A DNA stretch of 14,677 nucleotides. It comes from a virus. The notes beneath the pieces were generated by a model that saw only the letters and a program-made list of their open reading frames with translations, ran no database searches and was not told the origin of the DNA. Shown piece after piece: positions 391-10,074 of this stretch. The translations under genes and the position numbers were made by a program. Every line of letters starts with the position of its first letter. Positions within the stretch are counted from its first letter, which is position 1. The DNA lies in the UHGV virus genome UHGV-1705688; one strand, written 5' to 3'.

Positions 391-689
391 TGAAAGTTAT
401 AAACCTCAACTGTGAAAGTGAATGCAGGACTACCAGTGGTCGGTAAATAGAATGCAGTGAATCCGCCATTAAAAGCGCGGCAGTAATATTCATTTGCAGT
501 TACGCCAGTTGTAACAATGGATATAAATGAACCATCCTGGGTGATACCGGAAAATGAAACGTCTTTCGTCGTTTCCCCGGCAGCAAATGTTACTGTTGTG
601 CTTCCAATATAGCGGATAGCATAATCACTTAAATCAACGGCAATACGCCCTGCTCCGTCCCAGCATTGCAACCCCTGTGGCATTACCAT
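387..689 (-). CDS. Hypothetical 100-aa protein immediately downstream of J and overlapping it; function unknown.
   Basis: ORF track 387..689. ATG at 689..687 overlaps the J stop (683..685) by 7 nt; a second in-frame ATG lies at 683..681. Its stop overlaps the start of the next gene. Family not recognised. Confidence 0.55.
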   Translation of the reverse strand: MVMPQGLQCWDGAGRIAVDLSDYAIRYIGSTTVTFAAGETTKDVSFSGITQDGSFISIVTTGVTANEYYCRAFNGGFTAFYLPTTGSPAFTFTVEVYNFQ

Positions 690-3600
690 AACCCCATTCT
701 GACACGCAGCACGTTGTTGCTGTCGTAGATTTGAATGAGCGTGCTGGATATCAACATCCTGCCGCCGCCGCCCACACCGTTAATTTCAAACGTTCCCCCT
801 TTATCAAGCTTCCAGCCTACAGAGCCAGCCACATAGTTATTCGACTGGATGTAATTGCCAATTTTTGCATTGCTTATGGTCCCGTCGCCAATAACTGTAT
901 CCCTGATAATGGCCTGGCCATTCTGGATAACGAACGGCAGTGTTACAGTCCCGCCGACCATAGTAGTCACGGCGAAACGGTCTGCCAGGAAGATTACCTG
1001 TGACTGCATGCCGGAGGGTGTATTTTGAACCCCAATACCCATCCCGGCAGCGTAATACTGCCCGTTACTGGACACCCCCACCTTGATGTTATACATCGCG
1101 CTGAGGTTACCGTTTACATCTGCTATAGCCTGTGCGTTGACGTTTATCGCTGCACTGTTTTCGCCTGATTTAACAGTCAGAGTGTTGATTTTTGTTGCCG
1201 AAGCCTGAGTGAAGTCAGCCAGGGTTTCGGTGAGATCGGTTGCATTGGAAATATTGCCACCGGCAGATGCATCCAGCGTAACAAGTGCGCGGGCAACCGC
1301 CGAACTGGTATCCGCAATCGTTGTGTCAATGCGGTCGATGCTGGCGCTGTTTCCGGCATTCGTCACGGTTTGAGATCGACGCGAAGTAACCTGCGCCAGC
1401 CCATTCTGGATTATGGCGATGGCGGAGTTCTTCACTCCCCCAGCCATGCCGTCCACAGACACGCTGATGTTATCGATGCGCTGGCCCAGCGCGGTATCAG
1501 CCGTCGCCACTGTCTGCTCAAGCTCTGAGAGGGAAGACGACACTTCACCGACGGTGCTCGAAAGCTCATTAACGCTGGTCTGAACCTTTCCGACGTCCTG
1601 GGCATTTTTGGCAATATCCTTCGCCTGCTGCTCCAGTTCGTCGTTGGCCTGTTTGATGTCGTCAGCCATGCCAGCAATTTTTTCATTGCTGTCCACCGCG
1701 TTCTCGATCAGGTCTTTGAACGTATCGGAGTCTTTAATTTCCTCCAGAATCACATCTGTGATATCGGAAACATCGATGCTGGCCTGTCCTCGCACCCATT
1801 CTGTGTACCCTGATTCGTTGCCGCTGCGGTCCACCAGCTGCGCGCGGTACCAGAAAATCTGCCCAGCCTTAAGGCCCATCTGCTGATATTTGCGCTGCGG
1901 ATAAGGCACATCGGCCAGCAGCATTGCATCATCTTCGCTACCGGTCAGGCTGTACTGAATTTCCGTCTTCAGCGTGTCTTCGGTATTCGCCGGGAATCCC
2001 CAGTTCAGCTCGATACCGAATACCACGTTTTCAGAAGCGATGAAGCCAACCGGCTTCGGTGGATTGCCCACTTTACCCGTCAGCGTTTTCTCTTCTGAAT
2101 AGCCCCATCCGGATGAAATTTCTGCGGCATTGATTGCGCGCACCCGCACCAGGTAGCGCCCGGCATAAATCCCCGGGACGTCGAATGACGTGGTGGAGGT
2201 GCGCGGCACGTTAACCCAGTTCCCGTCGTTGCGGCGCCATTGCGCTTCATAGGCGATAGCGTTCTGCGCCTGGTCCCAGCTCACGCGCATTGTTTCGACG
2301 CTGATATTTTGCTGAACCACGGAAAACGAGCTGATCACGATATTCGCAGGCGGCGACTGGTTGCCCGGCGGGATCACGCTCACCGGCCGTTGGTCAATGA
2401 TGGCTCCGGTATCGATACGGGCATATTTATCCGGGTCGTGCCATGCGCCGGTAATCGAGAAAGTGCCATCATTGTTATCGGAAACGCTGACAACACGATA
2501 CTGCTGCGCGTAAAGCTCGTCAGATTCAACCACCCAAACAGCTTCGGCCTGTGGCGTCTCACTGTATGCCGTGGTGACTGTGACTGATTCCCCGTTCACG
2601 GCCTGAATGGTCCTGCTCTGCGACGCTCCGGAGGGAAGGTTGAGAATAAGTCGATCACCTGGTGCTGCATCAGCTACGCGGTCAAGTTTGATAACGCGAC
2701 CGTTAACGGCGCTGATGCGGCCGCCCATAACCTTTCCGGAAAGCAGCTCGTCTGCCACGGCGATGATGTAGCCCGGCTGCGGAATGTTTCCGTCCAGCCC
2801 GACATCAAACGAAACAACGCGATCCTTGTTATTGGTGAGAATACCCCAGCGCCCCTTTCGGTTCGCCTCTGACTGCCTGGTGCAGCCGATGGCTGTCATT
2901 TCCAGCTGATTGAAGCCGTACCGCGCCACCAGCGCCTGCTCAAATACCGGCTCCATCGCGTCGGCATAAGCGTTACCCGGGTCTGACCATGAAACCAGCG
3001 CTGTGGTGTAGCGGCTTTTCGTGGTGCTGCTCGAATAGGTGAAGCGACCGCCAACAACGTTAGCGCGCGTATAGCTGTAATCAACATCGCGCGGCATGTC
3101 AGCCAGGGCCACAATCTGATCCCCGCCCCAGTAGGTCATGCCACGGAAGATAGCGGCAAAATCACGCAGGACTGTGTAGGCGTCGTTCCGGTCCTGAATG
3201 TACACGTTGCAGGTATAGCGTGGTTCTGTACCGTTGCCCCCTTTGCCGTCTGGTACCATCTGATCACAATACTGAGCAACCTGATAAAGCGTCCATTTAT
3301 CAATATTCGCAGCGGTCAAACGGTGCCCAAGGCCGAACCGGTCAGAAACAACCAGGTCGTAAAAAATCCACGCAGGGTTATCCGTCCATGCCCACTTAAA
3401 CGCACCGGTCCATGTACCGCTATAAGTGCGGGTTTCAGGGTCGTAGGTATCTGGAACGCGGATAACGCGGCCGCGCGGTTCGCATGAAATTTGAGGAATA
3501 GAGCCGTTGAACTGGCTTGAGTCGAATTCGACGTAGAGCAGCGCGGTGTTCGGGTAGCGCAGTTTGGCGTCAATCACCTCGGTGAAGCTCTGCAGCATCA

Positions 3601-4219
3601 TCGTGTCGCCGATCTTCGCGCTGTTGGCGTCAGAGGTAATCTTACGCAGACGTATTGTCCAGGTGCTGCCAGCCTGCGGTAAATCGATACGGTGGCTGCG
3701 CTCATAACCAGACGTCGTTTTGCCGGTCACGCTGGTATTGAGTACCGTCTGCCATGTGCCGCCGTCCGTCTGTAGGTCAATCGCATAATTGACCGAGTAA
3801 CCCACCAGATCGCCGTCGTCTTCCTGTTTGAAAAGCGAGGGCCATTTAAGACGCAGGCGAACTGCTGAAAGCTGCGTATTGGTAAACGTGCGCGTCCAGG
3901 CTGTGGCACTTGATACCTCAGTTCCTACGCTGATCTCGTTTTCGGTACCGGGAATACCCTGAATATATTTTTGCGCCTGCGTTCCCGCGCGAAACTCCCA
4001 CGTTACCCCGCTGAAGTTTTGGGAGCCGTCAGCATTCTCCAGCGCTGTTCCGTCCAGGTAGATATCTTTGCCGGTTAATTGCCCGGAGAACTCGCCCTCG
4101 CCAAGGGCGATTAAAATTTTCGCCTTCGCAACTGACTGCAGATCATCGGGCTGTTCAGTTGGAGTGCGTGTCTTTGAACTACCGCCTTTGCGGCCTTTAA
4201 TCGCGGTTGCAGTTGCCAT
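683..4219 (-). CDS. J: Tail tip / host specificity protein J (central tail fibre), 1178 aa. Lambda-like N-terminal and central part; longer coiled-coil segment and divergent C-terminal receptor-binding end.
   Basis: Largest ORF in the window, in the lambda position after I. Segments such as GTEPRYTCNVYIQDRNDAYTVLRDF and SQVIFLADRFAV...PFVIQNGQ match lambda J as I recall it; the last part ending GRMLISSTLIQIYDSNNVLRVRMGLW does not. ATG at 4219..4217. Confidence 0.93.
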   Translation of the reverse strand: MATATAIKGRKGGSSKTRTPTEQPDDLQSVAKAKILIALGEGEFSGQLTGKDIYLDGTALENADGSQNFSGVTWEFRAGTQAQKYIQGIPGTENEISVGTEVSSATAWTRTFTNTQLSAVRLRLKWPSLFKQEDDGDLVGYSVNYAIDLQTDGGTWQTVLNTSVTGKTTSGYERSHRIDLPQAGSTWTIRLRKITSDANSAKIGDTMMLQSFTEVIDAKLRYPNTALLYVEFDSSQFNGSIPQISCEPRGRVIRVPDTYDPETRTYSGTWTGAFKWAWTDNPAWIFYDLVVSDRFGLGHRLTAANIDKWTLYQVAQYCDQMVPDGKGGNGTEPRYTCNVYIQDRNDAYTVLRDFAAIFRGMTYWGGDQIVALADMPRDVDYSYTRANVVGGRFTYSSSTTKSRYTTALVSWSDPGNAYADAMEPVFEQALVARYGFNQLEMTAIGCTRQSEANRKGRWGILTNNKDRVVSFDVGLDGNIPQPGYIIAVADELLSGKVMGGRISAVNGRVIKLDRVADAAPGDRLILNLPSGASQSRTIQAVNGESVTVTTAYSETPQAEAVWVVESDELYAQQYRVVSVSDNNDGTFSITGAWHDPDKYARIDTGAIIDQRPVSVIPPGNQSPPANIVISSFSVVQQNISVETMRVSWDQAQNAIAYEAQWRRNDGNWVNVPRTSTTSFDVPGIYAGRYLVRVRAINAAEISSGWGYSEEKTLTGKVGNPPKPVGFIASENVVFGIELNWGFPANTEDTLKTEIQYSLTGSEDDAMLLADVPYPQRKYQQMGLKAGQIFWYRAQLVDRSGNESGYTEWVRGQASIDVSDITDVILEEIKDSDTFKDLIENAVDSNEKIAGMADDIKQANDELEQQAKDIAKNAQDVGKVQTSVNELSSTVGEVSSSLSELEQTVATADTALGQRIDNISVSVDGMAGGVKNSAIAIIQNGLAQVTSRRSQTVTNAGNSASIDRIDTTIADTSSAVARALVTLDASAGGNISNATDLTETLADFTQASATKINTLTVKSGENSAAINVNAQAIADVNGNLSAMYNIKVGVSSNGQYYAAGMGIGVQNTPSGMQSQVIFLADRFAVTTMVGGTVTLPFVIQNGQAIIRDTVIGDGTISNAKIGNYIQSNNYVAGSVGWKLDKGGTFEINGVGGGGRMLISSTLIQIYDSNNVLRVRMGLW

Positions 4220-4230
4220 ATTGCGTCCAT

Positions 4231-4253
4231 AAAAAAAGCCACCCGGAGGTGGC
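4231..4253 (-). terminator. Intrinsic (rho-independent) terminator oriented for minus-strand transcripts, ending 11 nt upstream of the J start codon.
   Basis: Plus-strand GCCACC-CGGA-GGTGGC (4238..4253), a perfect 6-bp GC-rich stem with 4-nt loop, adjacent to A7 (4231..4237); on the minus strand this reads hairpin followed by U7. Confidence 0.6.
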
Positions 4254-4385
4254 TACTGTTTAAATATCAGGCTGTTGGTAACAGGAATCCCTGGTTAATG
4301 TGTAAGCTCAGCCCGCCAGTGGTAGGCCGCTGGCGTTAACTGACCGAGGGATGGCTGAAGTACCCGGTTAAAACGGAGTAATAAG

Positions 4386-4601
4386 ATGATCGAAGAAAAG
4401 TTCGTGGATTTTAGATTTACTCTTGACGAAAATATTCCTAGAGAAATCGCTTTAGAAATTGTGGCTCTAAGACAAGTTACAATGGTATTAACAGCAGCAT
4501 TGCCAGTAGATACAAGGCAACAAGTTATTGAAATCCTATCAAAGACAAACTCACCACAAATTCAAGACATCGTCAAAAATATGAAGCTTATTGACGCCTA
4601 A
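4386..4601 (+). CDS. Hypothetical 71-aa protein in a low-GC insert, antisense to the late operon. Uncertain whether it is expressed.
   Basis: ORF track. ATG at 4386 preceded by GGAG with ~7-nt spacer. A/T-rich third codon positions with AGA/AGG/CTA codons suggest foreign origin. No convincing sigma-70 promoter found in 4254..4385. Overlaps the minus-strand 49-aa ORF by 51 nt. Confidence 0.35.
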   Translation: MIEEKFVDFRFTLDENIPREIALEIVALRQVTMVLTAALPVDTRQQVIEILSKTNSPQIQDIVKNMKLIDA

Positions 4602-4700
4602 TGTCATTGAAGCATCGTACTCTACGGTCTCATGCGGGACCGTTTCATTAACTTCAGATGTTTCATTTTCAGTTTTTTCTACTCGTGACTCAAAAGACAT
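4551..4700 (-). CDS. Hypothetical 49-aa acidic protein in the low-GC insert, co-directional with the late operon. Alternative or partner to the 71-aa plus-strand ORF.
   Basis: My own translation (below the ORF-track length cutoff): MSFESRVEKTENETSEVNETVPHETVEYDASMTLGVNKLHIFDDVLNLW. ATG at 4700..4698 is preceded by a perfect AAGGAG (plus 4707..4712) with 6-nt spacer, 20 nt downstream of the I stop. Confidence 0.3.
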   Translation of the reverse strand: MSFESRVEKTENETSEVNETVPHETVEYDASMTLGVNKLHIFDDVLNLW

Positions 4701-4720
4701 ACACATCTCCTTAACTTAGC

Positions 4721-5326
4721 TTACTGCTGATCTTCGACATAAATTCCGGCAGAAATAATCGCTCCGCCGATTCGACGCTTACCATAAAGCAGAGGCACCG
4801 GGTAGCCTTGCGCTGCAGTGTTGGTTACCCCGCCAAACGCATACGATGCACGGTTATCTGCGCTTTGTTTACTGGCTATGCCTGATGGCTGCGGTGAAAG
4901 CAGCTGAATAACCCCACCGAGGACCAACGAGGCACCAGTGGCAGCAGCAAACCCCGTCAATCCACCAGCAGCGAAAGCAGCGCCAATACCGCCAGAAACA
5001 AAGACTGCAGCAGTTATCAAAACTGCTCCTAATATCGTCTGAAAAAGACCAGCGCGTTTACTACCGATAATTACAGGCATAATCCTTACTACATCGCCTT
5101 CAGAGGGAAAACCCATCTCATCTGCGGCAATATTTCTTTTCCCTTTGAACACCGCGAAAGTTAATCCGCGACGTTTACTGCTGATCATGAAACTTTCGAA
5201 ACCGGGCAATGTTTTACTTAAAGCAATAGCAGCTTCACCAGTTCGCGCTATCAGTCGTTGATGGGTTCTACCGAATGTCTTTCCTAACACTCCGCCGAGC
5301 TGAATTGTTGTCATTACTTCTTTCAT
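4721..5326 (-). CDS. I: Tail assembly protein I, 201 aa.
   Basis: ORF track. Position between K and J; N-terminal pattern and hydrophobic Gly/Ala-rich C-terminal half ending PVPLLYGKRRIGG resemble lambda I. ATG at 5326..5324. Confidence 0.85.
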   Translation of the reverse strand: MKEVMTTIQLGGVLGKTFGRTHQRLIARTGEAAIALSKTLPGFESFMISSKRRGLTFAVFKGKRNIAADEMGFPSEGDVVRIMPVIIGSKRAGLFQTILGAVLITAAVFVSGGIGAAFAAGGLTGFAAATGASLVLGGVIQLLSPQPSGIASKQSADNRASYAFGGVTNTAAQGYPVPLLYGKRRIGGAIISAGIYVEDQQ

Positions 5327-5337
5327 ATTCTCACCAT

Positions 5338-5358
5338 AAAAAAAACCGCCGAAGCGGG
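5338..5358 (-). terminator. Small intrinsic terminator 12 nt after the lipoprotein gene stop and just upstream of the I ribosome-binding site.
   Basis: On the minus strand: CCGC-UUCG-GCGG (4-bp GC stem with UUCG tetraloop) followed by a run of 8 U (plus-strand A8 at 5338..5345). Confidence 0.5.
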
Positions 5359-5369
5359 TTAAGTCTTGG

Positions 5370-5711
5370 TTAGATACAGCGTTCTATTACTTTAATCCGG
5401 CTGTTTATTCGATAAGCAAATAGCCCACCTTGATGACGGAATTCAATCTTGGTAATTCCGCCGTCCGATATTAAATCAACCATCTCAAGTTGAGATTGTG
5501 TAAATACAGTTTTACCACCGTCATAAGGCTGAATAAAAACGCTTCCATATTTTTGGCTTTCTTCTTGCCAGCCAGAGAGTATGCATTCAGCTACTGCGTC
5601 AATTTGTTTCTTCGATTGAAAATTATTTGACGCTGGTTCCTTCCGGAGATCCTGCATACTCGAACAACCAGCCATGATTATCAAAGAAAGTGTCAATAAT
5701 GTTTTTTTCAT
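5370..5711 (-). CDS. Predicted outer-membrane lipoprotein, 113-aa precursor, inserted between K and I. Candidate moron, possibly superinfection exclusion or receptor masking.
   Basis: Inside track ORF 5370..5879, but the true start is the internal ATG at 5711..5709, giving MKKTLLTLSLIIMAGCSS: a basic N-terminus, hydrophobic core and a lipobox-like IMAGC with Ser at +2. Gene is markedly AT-rich versus neighbours and is followed by its own terminator. Lambda has no gene here. Confidence 0.75.
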   Translation of the reverse strand: MKKTLLTLSLIIMAGCSSMQDLRKEPASNNFQSKKQIDAVAECILSGWQEESQKYGSVFIQPYDGGKTVFTQSQLEMVDLISDGGITKIEFRHQGGLFAYRINSRIKVIERCI

Positions 5712-5730
5712 ATCCCTATCCCCTTTGGTT

Positions 5731-5759
5731 TTACAAAAGGTTAGCACAGAGATTTGTAA
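5731..5759 (-). promoter_or_regulatory. Inverted repeat TTACAAA-N15-TTTGTAA spanning the K stop codon, overlapping a weak sigma-70-like -35/-10 candidate for the lipoprotein gene.
   Basis: Plus 5731..5737 TTACAAA and 5753..5759 TTTGTAA are reverse complements. On the minus strand a TTACAA -35-like hexamer and a TGTAAA -10-like hexamer lie ~18 nt apart, 15-20 nt upstream of the lipoprotein ATG. Matches to consensus are modest. Confidence 0.25.
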
Positions 5760-6451
5760 CGTAGAACCTTCATCGTCCTTTCCTGCCAGTAGCCACCATA
5801 CGGCACACGCTGGCTCAGATGTCCATACAGGTGGTGCAGCAGCATATTGCCCTCCAGCAGGATTCCCGCGTGATTCCACTTATCAGCCTGGACCTGCATG
5901 ATCACCATATCGCCGGGTTTCGGTGGTCCGTCGAATTCACGGAATCCGCACTCATACCAGCAATCCTGATAGAAGTTGTCCGGATAGTCGTTTTCCCACC
6001 AGGGATAATCAACCCGGTAATCGTGGAGCTCGATACCATGCGTTTGCCGGAAATAGCTCATTACCAGCCCCCAGCAGTCGAAGTGTCCAAGCACAAACGG
6101 ACGCTCCAGCAGTGGCAGTTCTCCGCGCGGCTGGATGGTGCGTAAATCCCCCTCCGGCCAGCTCACAATATGCCAGGGTAAAAGCGTTGCGTCGCATTGC
6201 GCTTTATCCAGTTCGCTCGGCTGCGTAGTGGCGTCAGGGTGACTGTGAACGATGGCGATCACCGTACCCCAGTCCTCAGCAGCTGCATAGTCTTCTGGCG
6301 ACAGGTGAAAATGTTCTGTCGGCTCGGTAGCGAGGTTACTACATGGAAAATATTTCTCTACCCGGCTCTTTTGCGCCACCACGCCGCAACACTCATGAGG
6401 ATATTCAGCTGCAGCATGCGCCATAATCGCATCGATGGTTTTCTGACGCAT
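5741..6451 (-). CDS. K: Tail assembly protein K, 236 aa, with a JAMM/MPN metalloprotease-like domain and an NlpC/P60-like cysteine peptidase domain.
   Basis: ORF track. HSHPDATTQPSELD fits the JAMM motif HxH-x7-S-x2-D; the C-terminal half has a conserved Cys (FDCWGLV) and His (HAGILLEG), consistent with NlpC/P60. Lambda position between L and I. Confidence 0.9.
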   Translation of the reverse strand: MRQKTIDAIMAHAAAEYPHECCGVVAQKSRVEKYFPCSNLATEPTEHFHLSPEDYAAAEDWGTVIAIVHSHPDATTQPSELDKAQCDATLLPWHIVSWPEGDLRTIQPRGELPLLERPFVLGHFDCWGLVMSYFRQTHGIELHDYRVDYPWWENDYPDNFYQDCWYECGFREFDGPPKPGDMVIMQVQADKWNHAGILLEGNMLLHHLYGHLSQRVPYGGYWQERTMKVLRYKSLC

Positions 6452-6452
6452 A

Positions 6453-7208
6453 TCAACTCCTGATCAAAGACGTGCCCGGGAAGCCACCAAACGAGAGTTC
6501 GTTATCTTCGCCGAATCGGAGTTTGCAGGCCGTCAGCGTGCCGTTGCATTCATCCAGCGACGGATCGCTTACCGGGTTGTTGTTTTTGTCGAAATAGCGC
6601 GTACCGGCATAGTCGCAGCCATCGCCGGTTCGGTACTTGTTCCGGATGCACCATGTGCACAGAGAATGAAGCTGGCGGGTAGGTATCATCAGCCCCTGCA
6701 GATCCATAGGGCTGGATAGTGTGAACTCAACAACTTCATTGGTTTCACTGCTCTTTGCATCGATGTAGAAAACCTTCAGCTTCTCCTGGGTCGGATCGGC
6801 TGTCGGATTGCCTCCGGTGAAGTTTCTCGCATCGAGATACTTACCAAGGGTGTCATGTATCGTCACCTTCGCCTGCAGCATATCGTCGTAAGCCAGGCAA
6901 AGCGCGGTGATCGAACTGTCGAGGTTAGCAACCGAAAGTTTTGGCTGGGCACTACTTCCCGAGGTTGAAGCCTCGATCCCCTCAATCTGACACGGCCAGG
7001 CTTTATACTCCTCACCCTGCCACCAGATGGACTTCGCTGGAAGTTTATTCTCATCCCCGCCTGCAGCCTCAATCTCTTCCGGGGTATGCGCGATGTTATG
7101 TGCGTGGAAGCGGAGTACATCTGACATACCGAACGCCGTGCCATCGACAGAAAAAAGCCGGACTTCATTGCCCGGCTCGAGTTTTTGATAATCAGCATTA
7201 AGACTCAT
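6453..7208 (-). CDS. L: Minor tail protein L, 251 aa, with C-terminal cysteine cluster (probable Fe-S site).
   Basis: ORF track. Start ATG overlaps the M stop (ATGA). C-terminal CTWC...C...C cysteine cluster as in lambda gpL. Synteny M-L-K. Confidence 0.9.
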   Translation of the reverse strand: MSLNADYQKLEPGNEVRLFSVDGTAFGMSDVLRFHAHNIAHTPEEIEAAGGDENKLPAKSIWWQGEEYKAWPCQIEGIEASTSGSSAQPKLSVANLDSSITALCLAYDDMLQAKVTIHDTLGKYLDARNFTGGNPTADPTQEKLKVFYIDAKSSETNEVVEFTLSSPMDLQGLMIPTRQLHSLCTWCIRNKYRTGDGCDYAGTRYFDKNNNPVSDPSLDECNGTLTACKLRFGEDNELSFGGFPGTSLIRS

Positions 7209-7552
7209 GGTGCAAATGCCTGTTCAAACGTTGCGGTTACGGTTATCACTTTTACGTTTTTAACCACCTTTTTGAGCGTGTCAGCCTCGACACGCCACAG
7301 CGCGGTATCGCCGAAAGGCGGAGTGAAAATAAACGACTTCACTTTATGCCGCCGAAGGAAAGCGTGAATTTCATTCGCTGTAGTCGGATCCCCTGAAAAG
7401 GAATATTCATAGGTACGAATCTCATCATTCAGGCCGGAGCCGCTCACCTGTGCGTACCCGTCGCCGAACTGAACCTTCCTGACTGTGTCTTTGCTTCCCT
7501 CGGTGGGCTGGCTGGAAACCTTAATGCCCCAGGGGAATGTTTCTATCGTCAT
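7205..7552 (-). CDS. M: Minor tail protein M, 115 aa.
   Basis: ORF track. Size and position between H and L; VRKVQFGDGYAQ resembles lambda M VRKVRFGDGYSQ as recalled. Confidence 0.85.
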   Translation of the reverse strand: MTIETFPWGIKVSSQPTEGSKDTVRKVQFGDGYAQVSGSGLNDEIRTYEYSFSGDPTTANEIHAFLRRHKVKSFIFTPPFGDTALWRVEADTLKKVVKNVKVITVTATFEQAFAP

Positions 7553-7557
7553 AACTG

Positions 7558-10074
7558 TTACCTGCGATTGGTCGCATTCCAGATAAGCCCACCGGGCTGG
7601 ATTGCCCTGGCGATACCCTCGTTGACAGATTTATTAATCACCTGCTCATACGCCTTACCCAGCCTGTCTCCGTCGTTTTGCTGCTGTGCGTTACCGGAAG
7701 CATTCTCGACCGTCACCGGGGCATATACACTGACACCGAAAGGTGCTGCAGCCGGGCCTGTACCACCGCCCCCGACATACCCTCCCGTGGCATAGCCTTT
7801 CATCATCCGGTAAAGATTGCCGACGCCGATCCGACTGGTAGCCTCTTTGGTGAAAACAAATTCGCCACGGTGAACGACACCTGCGGGTTCATATTTCCCA
7901 CCCGAACCGGTGAATCCCCCGCTGGCAAACCCCAGCGCCGTGGAGGCTGAATCTACCAGTCCGGTCATTGCCTGCTTCAGCAGAATTTGTGTCAGCATGG
8001 AGAGCGTGGAGCGGGTAAAGTCAGCCCAGTCAGCCTTTCCGCGTGTCAGCATGTCTGCCATATTCTGCCCGATGCCATCAAACGTACTGGTGGCAACCGA
8101 CTTCATCTGGCCATAAGCATCTGAAGCGGAATCAACATAATCTGCCCATGCGGATTTGGCCCCGGATTGCCAGTCGTCCCGCAGCTTATCCTGCTCGGCG
8201 TAATACGCCTGCAGCGCCTGCAGCTCATTCTGATAACCAGCGTCGTTCTCCGAACCGCCACCATTTTTCCAGCCCTGAAGAAGCTGGGCCTCCTCATTGC
8301 GGCGTTGTGCTGCACGACTGCTCATACCAGCACTTTCCGCAAGGGCTCGGGTTTTCTCGCCGATCTGCGTGACGTATTTTTGGGACGTATCCTGCAGGCG
8401 GTTAAGCCGCTCCTGCGCCACTATCTGATCGCCAAGCTTCGCATTCAGCTCCGCACGGGAAAGCACCTCACTTTTACTGGCCAGCAGGGATTTTTCCTCA
8501 GCAGAAAGCGTTCGGGTCTTCGCGGCCTCTTCCAGAACCGTAAAGCGGGACTGCTGACGCCACAGCTCCTGACGCTGCTGGCTGATGGTGTCATTGATGC
8601 TCTTATGCTCCTGCAGGGTGCGCAGCTGTGTCTGTAGCTCCAGCGTCTGGGCACTGGCCGTATCGGTGGCACGGGCACCTGCGGGGGTTCTGATTGCCGG
8701 GGTCTTCTTCGGCTTTTTAAGGGTGTCTTCGTACTCTTTTTTCGCGGCAGCCAGGTTGATGTTGTAGTCAGCCTGGAGGATCCGCCCCTCTTTCAGCGCC
8801 TTGTTGAGCTCGCTCTGCCTGGCCGTGTATTTCTCCAGTGCCGTCTGCGTTTTGGCATAGTTTGCCTGTGCCTGCGCAGCATACTTCTGGCGATCCGATT
8901 CCGCAGCCGCTTCGCGCGATGCATTCTCTTCGTTCGCCCTGGCAATTCCCGCCTGCTGCTGCGCCATATCCAGCGCAAGCCTGGCCGTTTCGCGGTCATT
9001 CCAGAATCGGGCGCGAGCCTCATCATTGACATATCGGTCACCTTTACGCAGGTTCCAGATTTCATCAGCTTTTTTGAACGCGGCTTCGGCTTTTGCCACC
9101 ATCTCCTGCGCGGTGTCAGGTCGGCCAATATCGAGGGCTGCATCCCACATCGACTTGAAGGCGCGCTTCAGGGAGTCCGCTGAAGACTCTATCGTCCCCA
9201 TATTGTCGCGGATGGCTTTGGTCTGATCGTTGAATCCGGCTGTAGCCGCCTCGTTAGCCGCCTGCAGTGCGCCAGCCTCATCACCGGCACGCTGCAGCTG
9301 CGCCACATGGGCAATCTGTTCTGCGGTAACGTTATGGAACTGCTGGGCCATCGCGATCAGGCCCGATGTCGGGTCAGTTGCGAGCTTGCCGTAGGCTGCA
9401 GCGACTTTCTCCACCGGCACGCCGGAGGCATCAGTAAACCGCGCCACCGCCTGGCTCATTTCATCAAAGCGCGAGCCAGTACGCACACCTGCATTGATAA
9501 GCTCGGTCAGGGCTTCACTGGTCTGGTTGAACGTTAGCCCCGCTGCCTGTCCGTTCCGCGCCAGTGCCAGCATGCGGTCAGCTGTCAGTCCGGCTGTGTT
9601 CCCCGACAGTACCAGCGTTTTGTTGAAATCAGACAGAGTGGAAGAGCCCTGGTACCAGGCATAGAACAACGCGCCCGTTGCAACGGACAATGCACCAATG
9701 CCGACCATCAACGGGGAAATCGTCCCCAGCAACGCCCGGAATGTCGGAATGATCCCGCCAAAGGAGTCCTTAACCTGACCGCCCTGCTGAAGCAGAATCA
9801 GCCAGGGGTTCTGCCCACCCGCCAGCTGCGTGGCCACGTCAGTAAACTGCGCCGGGAGCATACGCATCGCTGCGTTATACTGACCCACTGAAATACCGGC
9901 CTTACGCGCGGCGTTCTCCTGGCGGCTGAAGGACTGCTGGATACGTAACGCTTCATCGTTTGCCGTATTGCCGGTCTGTTTTAATTCTTTTTTGACGTAG
10001 CTGAGCTGCTCGTTGAATTTTGTCGAGTTAACGTCAAGGTTAACGACCAGATCACCGACTGCCGTCTGGGCCAT
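7558..10074 (-). CDS. H: Tail tape measure protein H, 838 aa.
   Basis: ORF track. Long stretches match lambda H as recalled (AGISVGQYNAAMRMLPAQFTDVATQLAGGQNPWLILLQQGGQVKDSFGG; GKYEPAGVVHRGEFVFTKEATSRIGVGNLYRMMKGYATGGYVG). ATG at 10074..10072 overlaps the end of the T frame. Confidence 0.93.
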   Translation of the reverse strand: MAQTAVGDLVVNLDVNSTKFNEQLSYVKKELKQTGNTANDEALRIQQSFSRQENAARKAGISVGQYNAAMRMLPAQFTDVATQLAGGQNPWLILLQQGGQVKDSFGGIIPTFRALLGTISPLMVGIGALSVATGALFYAWYQGSSTLSDFNKTLVLSGNTAGLTADRMLALARNGQAAGLTFNQTSEALTELINAGVRTGSRFDEMSQAVARFTDASGVPVEKVAAAYGKLATDPTSGLIAMAQQFHNVTAEQIAHVAQLQRAGDEAGALQAANEAATAGFNDQTKAIRDNMGTIESSADSLKRAFKSMWDAALDIGRPDTAQEMVAKAEAAFKKADEIWNLRKGDRYVNDEARARFWNDRETARLALDMAQQQAGIARANEENASREAAAESDRQKYAAQAQANYAKTQTALEKYTARQSELNKALKEGRILQADYNINLAAAKKEYEDTLKKPKKTPAIRTPAGARATDTASAQTLELQTQLRTLQEHKSINDTISQQRQELWRQQSRFTVLEEAAKTRTLSAEEKSLLASKSEVLSRAELNAKLGDQIVAQERLNRLQDTSQKYVTQIGEKTRALAESAGMSSRAAQRRNEEAQLLQGWKNGGGSENDAGYQNELQALQAYYAEQDKLRDDWQSGAKSAWADYVDSASDAYGQMKSVATSTFDGIGQNMADMLTRGKADWADFTRSTLSMLTQILLKQAMTGLVDSASTALGFASGGFTGSGGKYEPAGVVHRGEFVFTKEATSRIGVGNLYRMMKGYATGGYVGGGGTGPAAAPFGVSVYAPVTVENASGNAQQQNDGDRLGKAYEQVINKSVNEGIARAIQPGGLIWNATNRR

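Follow-up and report, generated by a model that had tools for sequence, protein, structure and literature searches.

A lipoprotein gene between the tail genes K and I

The virus genome UHGV-1705688, a lambda-like prophage, carries, in the 14,677-nucleotide (nt) stretch considered here (the window), tail genes in the order known from lambda (H, M, L, K, I, J). One further gene, predicted to encode a lipoprotein, lies between K and I, 29 nt after the K stop codon and 43 nt before the I start codon; all of these genes are on the minus strand (Table 1). In lambda and phi80, K and I overlap and no gene separates them. We found that the slot between K and I accommodates many alternative genes (cargos), that nearly all of them encode exported proteins, and that the identity of the cargo is coupled to the N-terminal part of the tail-tip protein gpI and almost independent of the receptor-binding tip of gpJ. 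We tentatively propose that the lipoprotein may act at the cell envelope against related phages that have already adsorbed.

The initial annotation described the product as a 113-residue lipoprotein precursor with Ser at position +2, and our analysis confirmed this. Translation of 5370–5711 reads MKKTLLTLSLIIMAGCSSMQDLRKEPASNNF...; the precursor begins MKKTLLTLSLIIMAG, followed by CSS after the cleavage point. It has the sequence features by which lipoproteins are recognized: a charged N-terminus (K2 and K3), a hydrophobic core, and the lipobox I-M-A-G-C with an early cysteine, Cys16, as the lipobox Cys. The lipobox pattern is found in 176 of 187 family proteins, whose +2 residue is mostly A, S, V or T and never Asp, the residue that should be absent from this position in a Lol-sorted lipoprotein of the outer membrane. 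The +2 sorting rule has been established for Enterobacteriaceae only. With Ser17 at +2, the predicted protein is consistent with Lol-dependent transfer to the outer membrane. The gene is also AT-rich, as had been noted: its guanine plus cytosine (GC) fraction is 0.383, whereas K has 0.541, I has 0.485 and the window as a whole has 0.533.

The gene is real, far beyond chance, because it has a full-length match to phrog_914 (expectation value (E) 1.3e–36, residues 1–113 versus profile positions 1–118 of 118), 99% identical copies at the same position in the cultured phages HK140 (HK140_019) and mEpX2, where they are listed as hypothetical proteins, relatives in 92 sequence clusters, and three cysteines (Cys16, Cys43 and Cys112) that are invariant in 45 diverse relatives. 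The family, which the initial annotation did not recognize, is thus phrog_914, and its annotated function is unknown. The gene is under purifying selection: among close relatives the ratio of nonsynonymous to synonymous substitution rates (dN/dS) is 0.135 for the gene and 0.10 for its mature part, with 0.045 for K and 0.040 for I. A longer reading of 169 amino acids (aa), from a GTG at 5879, overlaps K in a different frame. We consider 113 aa to be the right length since the longer reading drops the conserved MKK start and the GGGGA Shine–Dalgarno sequence. In database entries (P0001, P0009, P0002) the protein is often called as 169 or 153 aa, from an in-frame GTG or ATG inside K, and these long calls conceal the lipoprotein signal from automatic predictors.

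A confident AlphaFold2 model (predicted local distance difference test score 86.5) places the mature chain in a small alpha/beta domain with a helix at residues 37–51 and a C-terminal helix at residues 99–112. Cys43 and Cys112 fall in these two helices and probably form a disulfide. Among the fold neighbours are helix-grip proteins that bind lipids or ligands, and two lipoproteins, Flpp3 and BamC-N. Pfam yielded no match for the protein or for 39 relatives, hence none to Bor/Iss. Scans of the protein against NCBIfam, Pfam and PADLOC returned nothing useful, the sole match being to TrsH at the level of the signal peptide; no family among the PADLOC anti-phage defence profiles was matched at E up to 1, and a profile search of PDB sequences gave only a signal-peptide match, to FlgP. 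An o-spanin of the Rz1 type was considered and rejected: the match to phrog_6073 (E = 0.009) covers residues 1–22 only, and the gene lies in the tail cluster and not in a lysis cassette.

Table 1. Features of the window discussed in the text (position 1 is the first letter of the window)
Feature	Position	Strand	Description
Lipoprotein gene	5370–5711	–	113 codons; phrog_914; from translation and PHROG match
Signal peptide	5667–5711	–	residues 1–15
Lipidated Cys16 codon (predicted)	5664–5666	–	
Stop codon of the lipoprotein gene	5370–5372	–	
Spacer	5712–5740	–	29 nt; GGGGA ribosome-binding site 7 nt before ATG; from sequence
Terminator-like hairpin and U8	5338–5360	–	CCGC-UUCG-GCGG; stem 5354–5357/5346–5349, loop 5350–5353, U8 5338–5345
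K	5741–6451	–	upstream flank of the slot; Prok-JAB and NlpC/P60 (Pfam E = 7e–21 and 7e–22); phrog_30
I	4721–5326	–	downstream flank of the slot
I codons 1–150	4877–5326	–	N-terminal domain and Gly/Ala-rich hydrophobic helices; co-varies with cargo
I codons 151–201 and stop	4721–4876	–	conserved C-terminal part; in lambda, plug and beta-strands in gpJ
J	683–4219	–	1178 aa; C-terminal 200 aa at 686–1285, phi80 type
L	6453–7208	–	
M	7205–7552	–	
H	7558–10074	–	
71-aa open reading frame	4386–4601	+	phrog_6806; mEp506 homologue annotated as DUF2594 protein
51-aa open reading frame	4551–4706	–	
Promoter-like site	4607–4578	–	
Strong hairpin and T7	4254–4237		AGCCACC-TCCG-GGTGGCT; just before J

A conserved hairpin before I and the search for a promoter

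According to the initial annotation the gene is closed by a UUCG-tetraloop terminator. The hairpin and its U8 run are there, ending 11 nt short of the I start codon, and are conserved in relatives, but the window copy itself is short: its stem has only 4 bp, all G-C pairs (–6.4 kcal/mol), a terminator scan that requires at least 5 pairs did not flag it, and local folding at this place was no better than for shuffled sequences. HK140 and most relatives have ACCCGC-UUCG-GCGGGU, with stems of 5–7 bp at the same spot (about –11.5 kcal/mol); relative to these, the window copy is weakened by one G-to-T change. Other lineages, Pseudomonas prophages included, have stems GCCCGC/GCGGGC, GCCACC/GGUGG, GCCGCC/GGCGGC or ACCGCC/GGCGGU, each followed by a T-run. 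Because the stem sequences differ between lineages at the same spot, the hairpin is conserved by structure. The unrelated gp20 cassette of HK97, HK022, HK633 and mEp235 has its own hairpin at this place, which the depositors annotated as a terminator in HK97, HK633 and mEp235.

No promoter fits in the spacer upstream of the gene, which is too short for one, and a consensus scan detected no sigma-70-like promoter upstream of the gene. The best match under relaxed settings, TGGACA-19-TATGGT, lies 83 nt upstream inside K and is a poor candidate. The "classic moron layout" of the initial annotation thus holds for the extra gene at a normally adjacent K–I junction, for its deviant composition and for its own terminator, while the scans revealed no convincing promoter. 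At window 5712–5790, which takes in the last 16 codons of K and the 29-nt spacer, synonymous diversity in these codons is about half that of the remainder of K, and the spacer is mostly invariant. This low diversity could stem from a regulatory element embedded there or just mark the left edge of the cassette.

The same region bears on the possibility that the lipoprotein is a lytic-cycle helper made from the late tail operon, which would shield progeny from ejecting into debris or vesicles, or tune the envelope at lysis, and would have no role in the prophage. Since no promoter was found and a good ribosome-binding site lies 29 nt after K, the gene would in that case be co-transcribed with the late tail genes. 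The Klebsiella branch of the family, which lacks the terminator, and a homologue in a Bordetella phage isolated from sewage point the same way. We nevertheless regard this explanation as unlikely. A terminator conserved before I would be useless in an antiterminated late transcript, and its conservation therefore argues for transcription that is not antiterminated, e.g. in a lysogen. The only spanin-like signal is the weak signal-peptide match described above, in a gene outside the lysis cassette. Protection from debris would, moreover, still need a target, so that this explanation overlaps with exclusion at the envelope rather than excluding it.

The lipoprotein is an old resident of the K–I slot

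An exhaustive HMMER search of 1.8 billion representatives found relatives in 92 clusters at 50% identity, nearly all of 100–135 residues with few fragments and few longer calls; a lipobox is present in all 31 cluster sequences that were inspected. A borderline match to a 2943-aa protein, a trimeric autotransporter adhesin, was taken as spurious. In IMG/VR, the K–I position is kept in 80 of 80 loci with a relative. Genomes were scanned with a Pseudomonas-type sub-alignment, the alignment of the broad family being too diverse, and 12 of the 13 genomic loci found in this way have the gene in the K–I slot, next to a K only 37–47% identical to the window K; Pseudomonas prophages are among these loci. 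A Bordetella phage with a 38% identical K likewise has a homologue in the slot, and homologues from Klebsiella, Pseudomonas and Edaphovirga also match phrog_914. In complete E. coli genomes the gene is rare (3 of 5426).

The identity of the lipoprotein to the window copy tracks that of its neighbours (rho 0.85 for K, 0.90 for I, 0.82 for L and 0.84 for the N-terminal part of J), and the lipoprotein diverges about twice as fast as they do. Its GC content is below that of both K and I in 79 of 79 non-redundant loci, Pseudomonas and Bordetella phages included, by a median of 13 points. As GC-rich hosts make no exception, AT-richness is a lasting trait of the gene and no sign of recent transfer. 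The conservation of the slot across hosts and a divergence that follows the tail genes lead us to view the lipoprotein as an old resident of the slot, which was lost or replaced in lambda and HK97. The statement that the gene is inserted between K and I is therefore apt with respect to lambda and phi80, but it should not be understood as recent horizontal acquisition of the kind associated with morons: the slot is held in phages of gamma- and beta-proteobacteria.

The slot is a site for diverse exported proteins

To describe the slot in close relatives, we took the 80 viral contigs with the K most similar to that of the window (at least 94% identical). The window lipoprotein type occurs in 19 of them and is the commonest occupant; gp20 is found in 4, other genes in 50, and in the remaining 7 the slot is empty, with a K–I gap of 14 nt. 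Like lambda and phi80, these 7 contigs show that the gene is absent from some lambda-like K–I junctions. When 95 non-redundant loci were clustered at 50% identity, the cargos fell into 17 types belonging to at least 8 unrelated PHROGs. Some of these types are distant members of phrog_914: types 4 and 5 match this family, and type 4 shares 22% identity with the window protein (hhalign probability 97.4). A lipobox is present in cargos of phrog_890 (annotated "lipoprotein"), phrog_16082, phrog_18989 and phrog_28385, a signal peptide in those of phrog_13007 and phrog_2320, and phrog_5031 (gp20) is a membrane protein. Judged by sequence, nearly every occupant of the slot is thus exported, as a lipoprotein, a secreted protein or a membrane protein. 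Diversity of this kind among exported cargos would be expected if they were envelope factors subject to diversifying pressure.

Extra genes sit between K and the lipoprotein gene, and an insertion between the lipoprotein gene and I was seen in only two loci. The K-side extras are at 5199–6001 in locus L040, 4902–6001 in L043, 3654–6001 in L045, and upstream of 5001 in L089, L092, L096 and L099; read by eye, they seem to comprise Arc-type repressors, KilA-N/Bro-N antirepressor-like proteins and a toxin–antitoxin pair. Insertions seem to be concentrated at the K end of the slot. On the other side, an open reading frame of about 170 aa between the lipoprotein gene and I (L057, 6462–6971) resembles, by eye, an IS200-type transposase. 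A Pseudomonas prophage (L092, 5001–5348 and 5535–5888) has two tandem diverged phrog_914-like lipoprotein genes before I; tandem diverged copies are often seen for immunity and exclusion genes.

Cargo type is nearly independent of the J tip

Lipoproteins encoded near the tail genes of other phages were the basis on which the initial annotation suggested that the gene product might be an exclusion or receptor-masking factor matched to the J variant of this phage. On this explanation the lipoprotein would bind the periplasmic face of the receptor of J, probably FhuA, and alter its surface loops so that adsorption is blocked, in the manner of Cor, Llp and Rtp45. Over their last 200 aa, the J proteins of phi80, which uses FhuA, and of HK140 are 82% and 84% identical to the window J, respectively. 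A predicted place on the inner leaflet of the outer membrane would suit a mask, and all phage exclusion lipoproteins that are understood structurally or genetically act in this way (PMC9586334, PMC12685063).

The distribution of the gene argues against such a match. The phi80-type tip class also occurs in phi80, HK446, mEp234 and mEp237, and a protein search of the phage collection found the lipoprotein gene in none of these four; the slot of HK446 holds another cargo. Across the 95 loci, the adjusted mutual information (AMI) between cargo type and J tip type is only 0.09, and it is 0.12 in the subset with the same backbone. The window cargo type was found together with 13 tip types, and every common tip type, in turn, is shared by many cargo types. 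Lipoproteins 96–98% identical to that of the window are found with J C-termini that are only 18–32% identical to its own, and within the family lipoprotein identity follows the N-terminal part of J (rho 0.77) more than its last 250 residues (rho 0.52). In HK140, the same lipoprotein and tip class are accompanied by a genuine cor gene next to J, in the order J, gp22, gp23, cor, terminator. The window begins within a similar arrangement: orf100 (387–689, phrog_7961) overlaps the J stop codon, and the next open reading frame starts at 388 and leaves the window, the two being homologues of gp22 and gp23 of phi80 and N15. By analogy, the cor gene of this phage probably lies just beyond the window start.

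The kinship with Cor-type or Llp-type proteins on which the masking idea leaned did not hold up either. BLASTP against Cor gave E = 15, and the protein has no match to phrog_1119, whereas HK022 Cor, used as a control, matches at E = 2.4e–37. Cor is characterized by a site at the 3′ end of J and an association with FhuA-type tips; the present gene lies between K and I. Solved exclusion lipoproteins of the Llp and Rtp45 type gave no sequence or fold match in the PDB. The known masks have about 55–60 mature residues and are encoded beside the receptor-binding gene, whereas this protein has 97 and its gene is 1.1 kb upstream of the J start. A relation to Lpp021 of mEp021, a tested lipoprotein of the mEpimmI group, was ruled out, as that protein is unrelated and encoded beyond J. 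A limited literature search turned up no receptor data for HK140 or mEpX2. Given the low AMI, the occurrence of the same tip with and without the gene, the cor gene of HK140 and the lack of a relation to Cor, a J-matched receptor mask is not supported, and we consider receptor masking quite improbable.

Cargo type is co-inherited with the N-terminal part of I

An alignment of the window I with lambda gpI spans the entire protein (32% identity, E = 1e–19), and residues 93–145 of the window I correspond to the helices H1/H2 of lambda. In contrast to the J tip, I is strongly associated with the cargo. Across the 95 loci, the AMI of cargo type is 0.68 with the type of the whole I, 0.70 with I residues 1–95 (0.83 where K is at least 93% identical), 0.60–0.66 with residues 96–150, and only 0.16 with the last 55 residues. 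Where K is at least 93% identical, pairs of loci share on average 73% identity over I residues 1–95, 62% over residues 96–150 and 95% over the last 55 residues. Codons 1–150 of I are thus an island of variation in a protein annotated for "tail assembly", which needs an explanation of its own. The window cargo type is accompanied by one I N-terminal type in 18 of 18 loci.

The linkage is also asymmetric. In 28 non-redundant loci of the window cargo type, the nucleotide identity of the cargo is correlated with that of the 5′ 300 nt of I with rho 0.91, versus 0.43 for the 3′ 300 nt of K, which adjoin the cargo just as closely. Among pairs of the window cargo type whose cargos are at least 97% identical, mean identity is 98.7% in the 5′ 300 nt of I, 94.7% in the 3′ 300 nt of K and 85.3% in the 3′ 300 nt of I, and the pairs falling below 92% make up 0%, 23% and 32%, respectively. 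This asymmetry between the 5′ end of I and the 3′ end of K shows that the cargo, the terminator and approximately the first 150 codons of I are inherited as one unit.

In lambda, gpI is a trimeric component of the tail tip with an unresolved N-terminal domain, the two hydrophobic helices H1/H2 (approximately residues 101–158), a plug (159–175) and C-terminal strands in gpJ (PMC11101478, PMC12617516). Binding of LamB opens the plug; H1/H2 exit the tip together with the N-terminal part, and the proposal is that they then insert into the outer membrane (PMC11101478, PMC12617516). The variable, cargo-coupled part of I is therefore the part proposed to enter the envelope, and the conserved part is the one that stays in the tail.

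The position of the gene directly after the NlpC/P60 gene K could also suggest an immunity-like function, in which the lipoprotein would be a periplasmic inhibitor of a hydrolase, either the NlpC/P60 domain of an incoming K or a type VI amidase, comparable to the Tai/Tsi lipoproteins. One homologue lies beside hcp/tssB in Edaphovirga, and the tandem diverged copies at one Pseudomonas locus would be in keeping with this. However, cargo identity follows K less than I, the junction of K with the lipoprotein gene readily takes up extra genes, K was not located in lambda virions (PMC12617516), no amidase-immunity fold is among the top structural matches, and the type VI context amounts to a single locus. 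We therefore hold an immunity-like inhibitor to be very improbable.

The lipoprotein could also be a lysogenic-conversion factor unrelated to phage entry, for instance by conferring serum or stress resistance as lambda Bor does, contributing to membrane homeostasis, or binding a ligand or lipid through its helix-grip-like fold. The moron-like layout with a terminator, the AT-richness that persists in all hosts (79 of 79 loci), the distant chromosomal relatives outside prophages and the fold neighbours (helix-grip lipid and ligand binders, Flpp3, BamC-N) are all compatible with such a role. The lack of any Pfam match, however, leaves it without a link to Bor/Iss or any other described family, and neither the strict placement before I nor the co-inheritance with the N-terminal part of I is given a reason. 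The gene is, moreover, rare in E. coli, and extreme diversity of types at a fixed slot is more typical of phage–phage conflict. We judge a conversion factor to be rather unlikely.

A possible exclusion factor acting after adsorption

Lipoproteins encoded in tail or structural gene clusters of phages do exclude other phages, as is known for Cor, Llp, Rtp45 and Lpp021/Lpp010 (PMC9586334, PMC12685063, PMC11893012). Since the cargo, predicted to face the periplasm, is co-inherited with the part of I that is proposed to enter the envelope, we propose that the lipoprotein may be an exclusion factor that acts at the envelope after adsorption, a proposal to which we assign a probability of roughly 40%. 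Signal peptidase II would cleave the precursor before Cys16, and the Lol pathway would anchor the protein in the inner leaflet of the outer membrane, with its 97 mature residues folded into a compact alpha/beta domain facing the periplasm. By the mechanism that we prefer, it would there engage the N-terminal domain and hydrophobic helices of incoming gpI during their passage from the tip into the outer membrane, and thereby prevent channel formation and the ejection of the tape-measure protein and DNA. A lysogen, or an infected cell and its progeny, would in this way be protected from related phages by a block at the envelope that follows receptor binding. The reality of the gene, its lipoprotein signal, the conservation of the slot, its independence from the J tip and its coupling to the N-terminal part of I are shown here, whereas the location of the protein, its expression from the prophage, its exclusion activity and gpI as its target are inferred.

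In a narrower version of the proposal, the slot lipoproteins (mainly phrog_914) and the N-terminal two-thirds of gpI would be matched, rapidly diversifying pairs, in which the resident lipoprotein captures gpI of its own type. This version is doubtful. If true, it would define a new class of entry exclusion whose target is an ejected tail-tip protein and not the receptor, and it would explain why gpI residues 1–150 are hypervariable among otherwise near-identical tails.

Several observations weigh against exclusion through gpI. The pairing of cargo and I is not strict, as I N-terminal type 13 is found with two cargo types and with an empty slot, and type 16 with two unrelated cargos. Hitch-hiking between two recombination hot spots, one where K meets the cargo and one within I, could account for the coupling. 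That the N-terminal domain of gpI reaches the periplasmic face of the outer membrane is itself a proposal from the literature. Expression of the lipoprotein in the prophage state is unproven, given that no promoter was found, and the Klebsiella branch of the family has no hairpin. There are also relatives outside phages. In Edaphovirga cremea (L097, 2374–5342), the relative is two small open reading frames downstream of hcp and adjoins tssB of a type VI secretion cluster, and in Pseudomonas (L106–L108) a more distant 124-aa relative, P0205, is chromosomal, overlaps a 111-aa gene and adjoins an HSP20 gene. A general envelope role is possible in view of these relatives.

Relation to known systems

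The gene has been in GenBank as a hypothetical protein, and exclusion by a tail-cluster lipoprotein is an old idea. The K–I slot is already termed a moron slot in HK97 and HK022, where it holds gp20, and has reportedly been regarded as a moron site since the genomes of these two phages appeared in 2000. To our knowledge, what is new is the breadth and age of the family at the K–I junction, the near-exclusive use of the slot for exported proteins, the independence of the slot from the receptor-binding tip, and the co-inheritance with the hypervariable, ejected part of gpI.

Cor (phi80, N15, HK022, mEp167; phrog_1119) is similar in being an outer-membrane lipoprotein of prophages, encoded in the lambdoid tail region with its own terminator and expected to act on entry. 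It differs in length and site (77 aa downstream of J versus 113 aa between K and I) and has no sequence relation to the window protein; Cor goes with FhuA-type tips, whereas the window lipoprotein shows no such preference for a tip type. T5 Llp, Rtp45 and the mEpimmI proteins Lpp021/Lpp010 are, like the window protein by prediction, small periplasm-facing lipoproteins of siphophages, and they exclude superinfecting phages. Unlike it, they have a mature mass of approximately 6–7 kDa, are encoded beside the receptor-binding gene and are specific for the receptor (users of FhuA, LptDE or OmpA/LamB). The window protein, with its 97-residue alpha/beta domain, matches them neither in sequence nor in fold and is uncoupled from the receptor-binding domain.

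The gp20 protein of HK97 and HK022 (phrog_5031) occupies the same K–I slot, has an envelope-targeted N-terminal transmembrane helix and is followed by a hairpin and a T-run before I, but it is an unrelated membrane protein of 74 aa, not a lipoprotein, and is accompanied by another N-terminal type of I. Functionally, the nearest parallel to the proposed mechanism is HK97 gp15, also a tail-cluster moron, which blocks DNA entry after adsorption; what matters for this block is the tail of the incoming phage, not the receptor (PMC3594210). HK97 gp15 is, however, an inner-membrane protein encoded in another slot and has no homology to the lipoprotein. By description only, p83 of the Pseudomonas phage AH14a and p21 of AH14b are similar, being encoded directly upstream of I in a lambda-like tail cluster; at 140 aa they are longer. 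The authors of that study considered the AH14 lipoprotein the most intriguing gene of the structural cluster and guessed at a Cor-like role, and a satellite phage keeps the pair of I and the lipoprotein (PMC4936722).

Between I and J, window positions 4220–4720 form a further AT-rich cassette (GC 0.41), with two small open reading frames, a promoter-like site and a strong hairpin (Table 1). It corresponds to the gp22/gp23 "moron/reverse moron" slot of HK97 and HK022.

Significance for phage entry

Lambda-like tails are the textbook model of siphophage entry. We know of no factor that acts on gpI after the tip has opened. The lipoprotein family gives a testable handle on this step of entry, as HK140 and mEpX2 are cultured coliphages with a 99% identical protein. 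Should the exclusion proposal be false, the gene would be one more moron in an already known slot. If it is true, the K–I slot would be a second locus of specificity besides immunity and the receptor, which would bear on competition between prophages, on the engineering of host range and on the way "hypothetical" genes in tail clusters are read.

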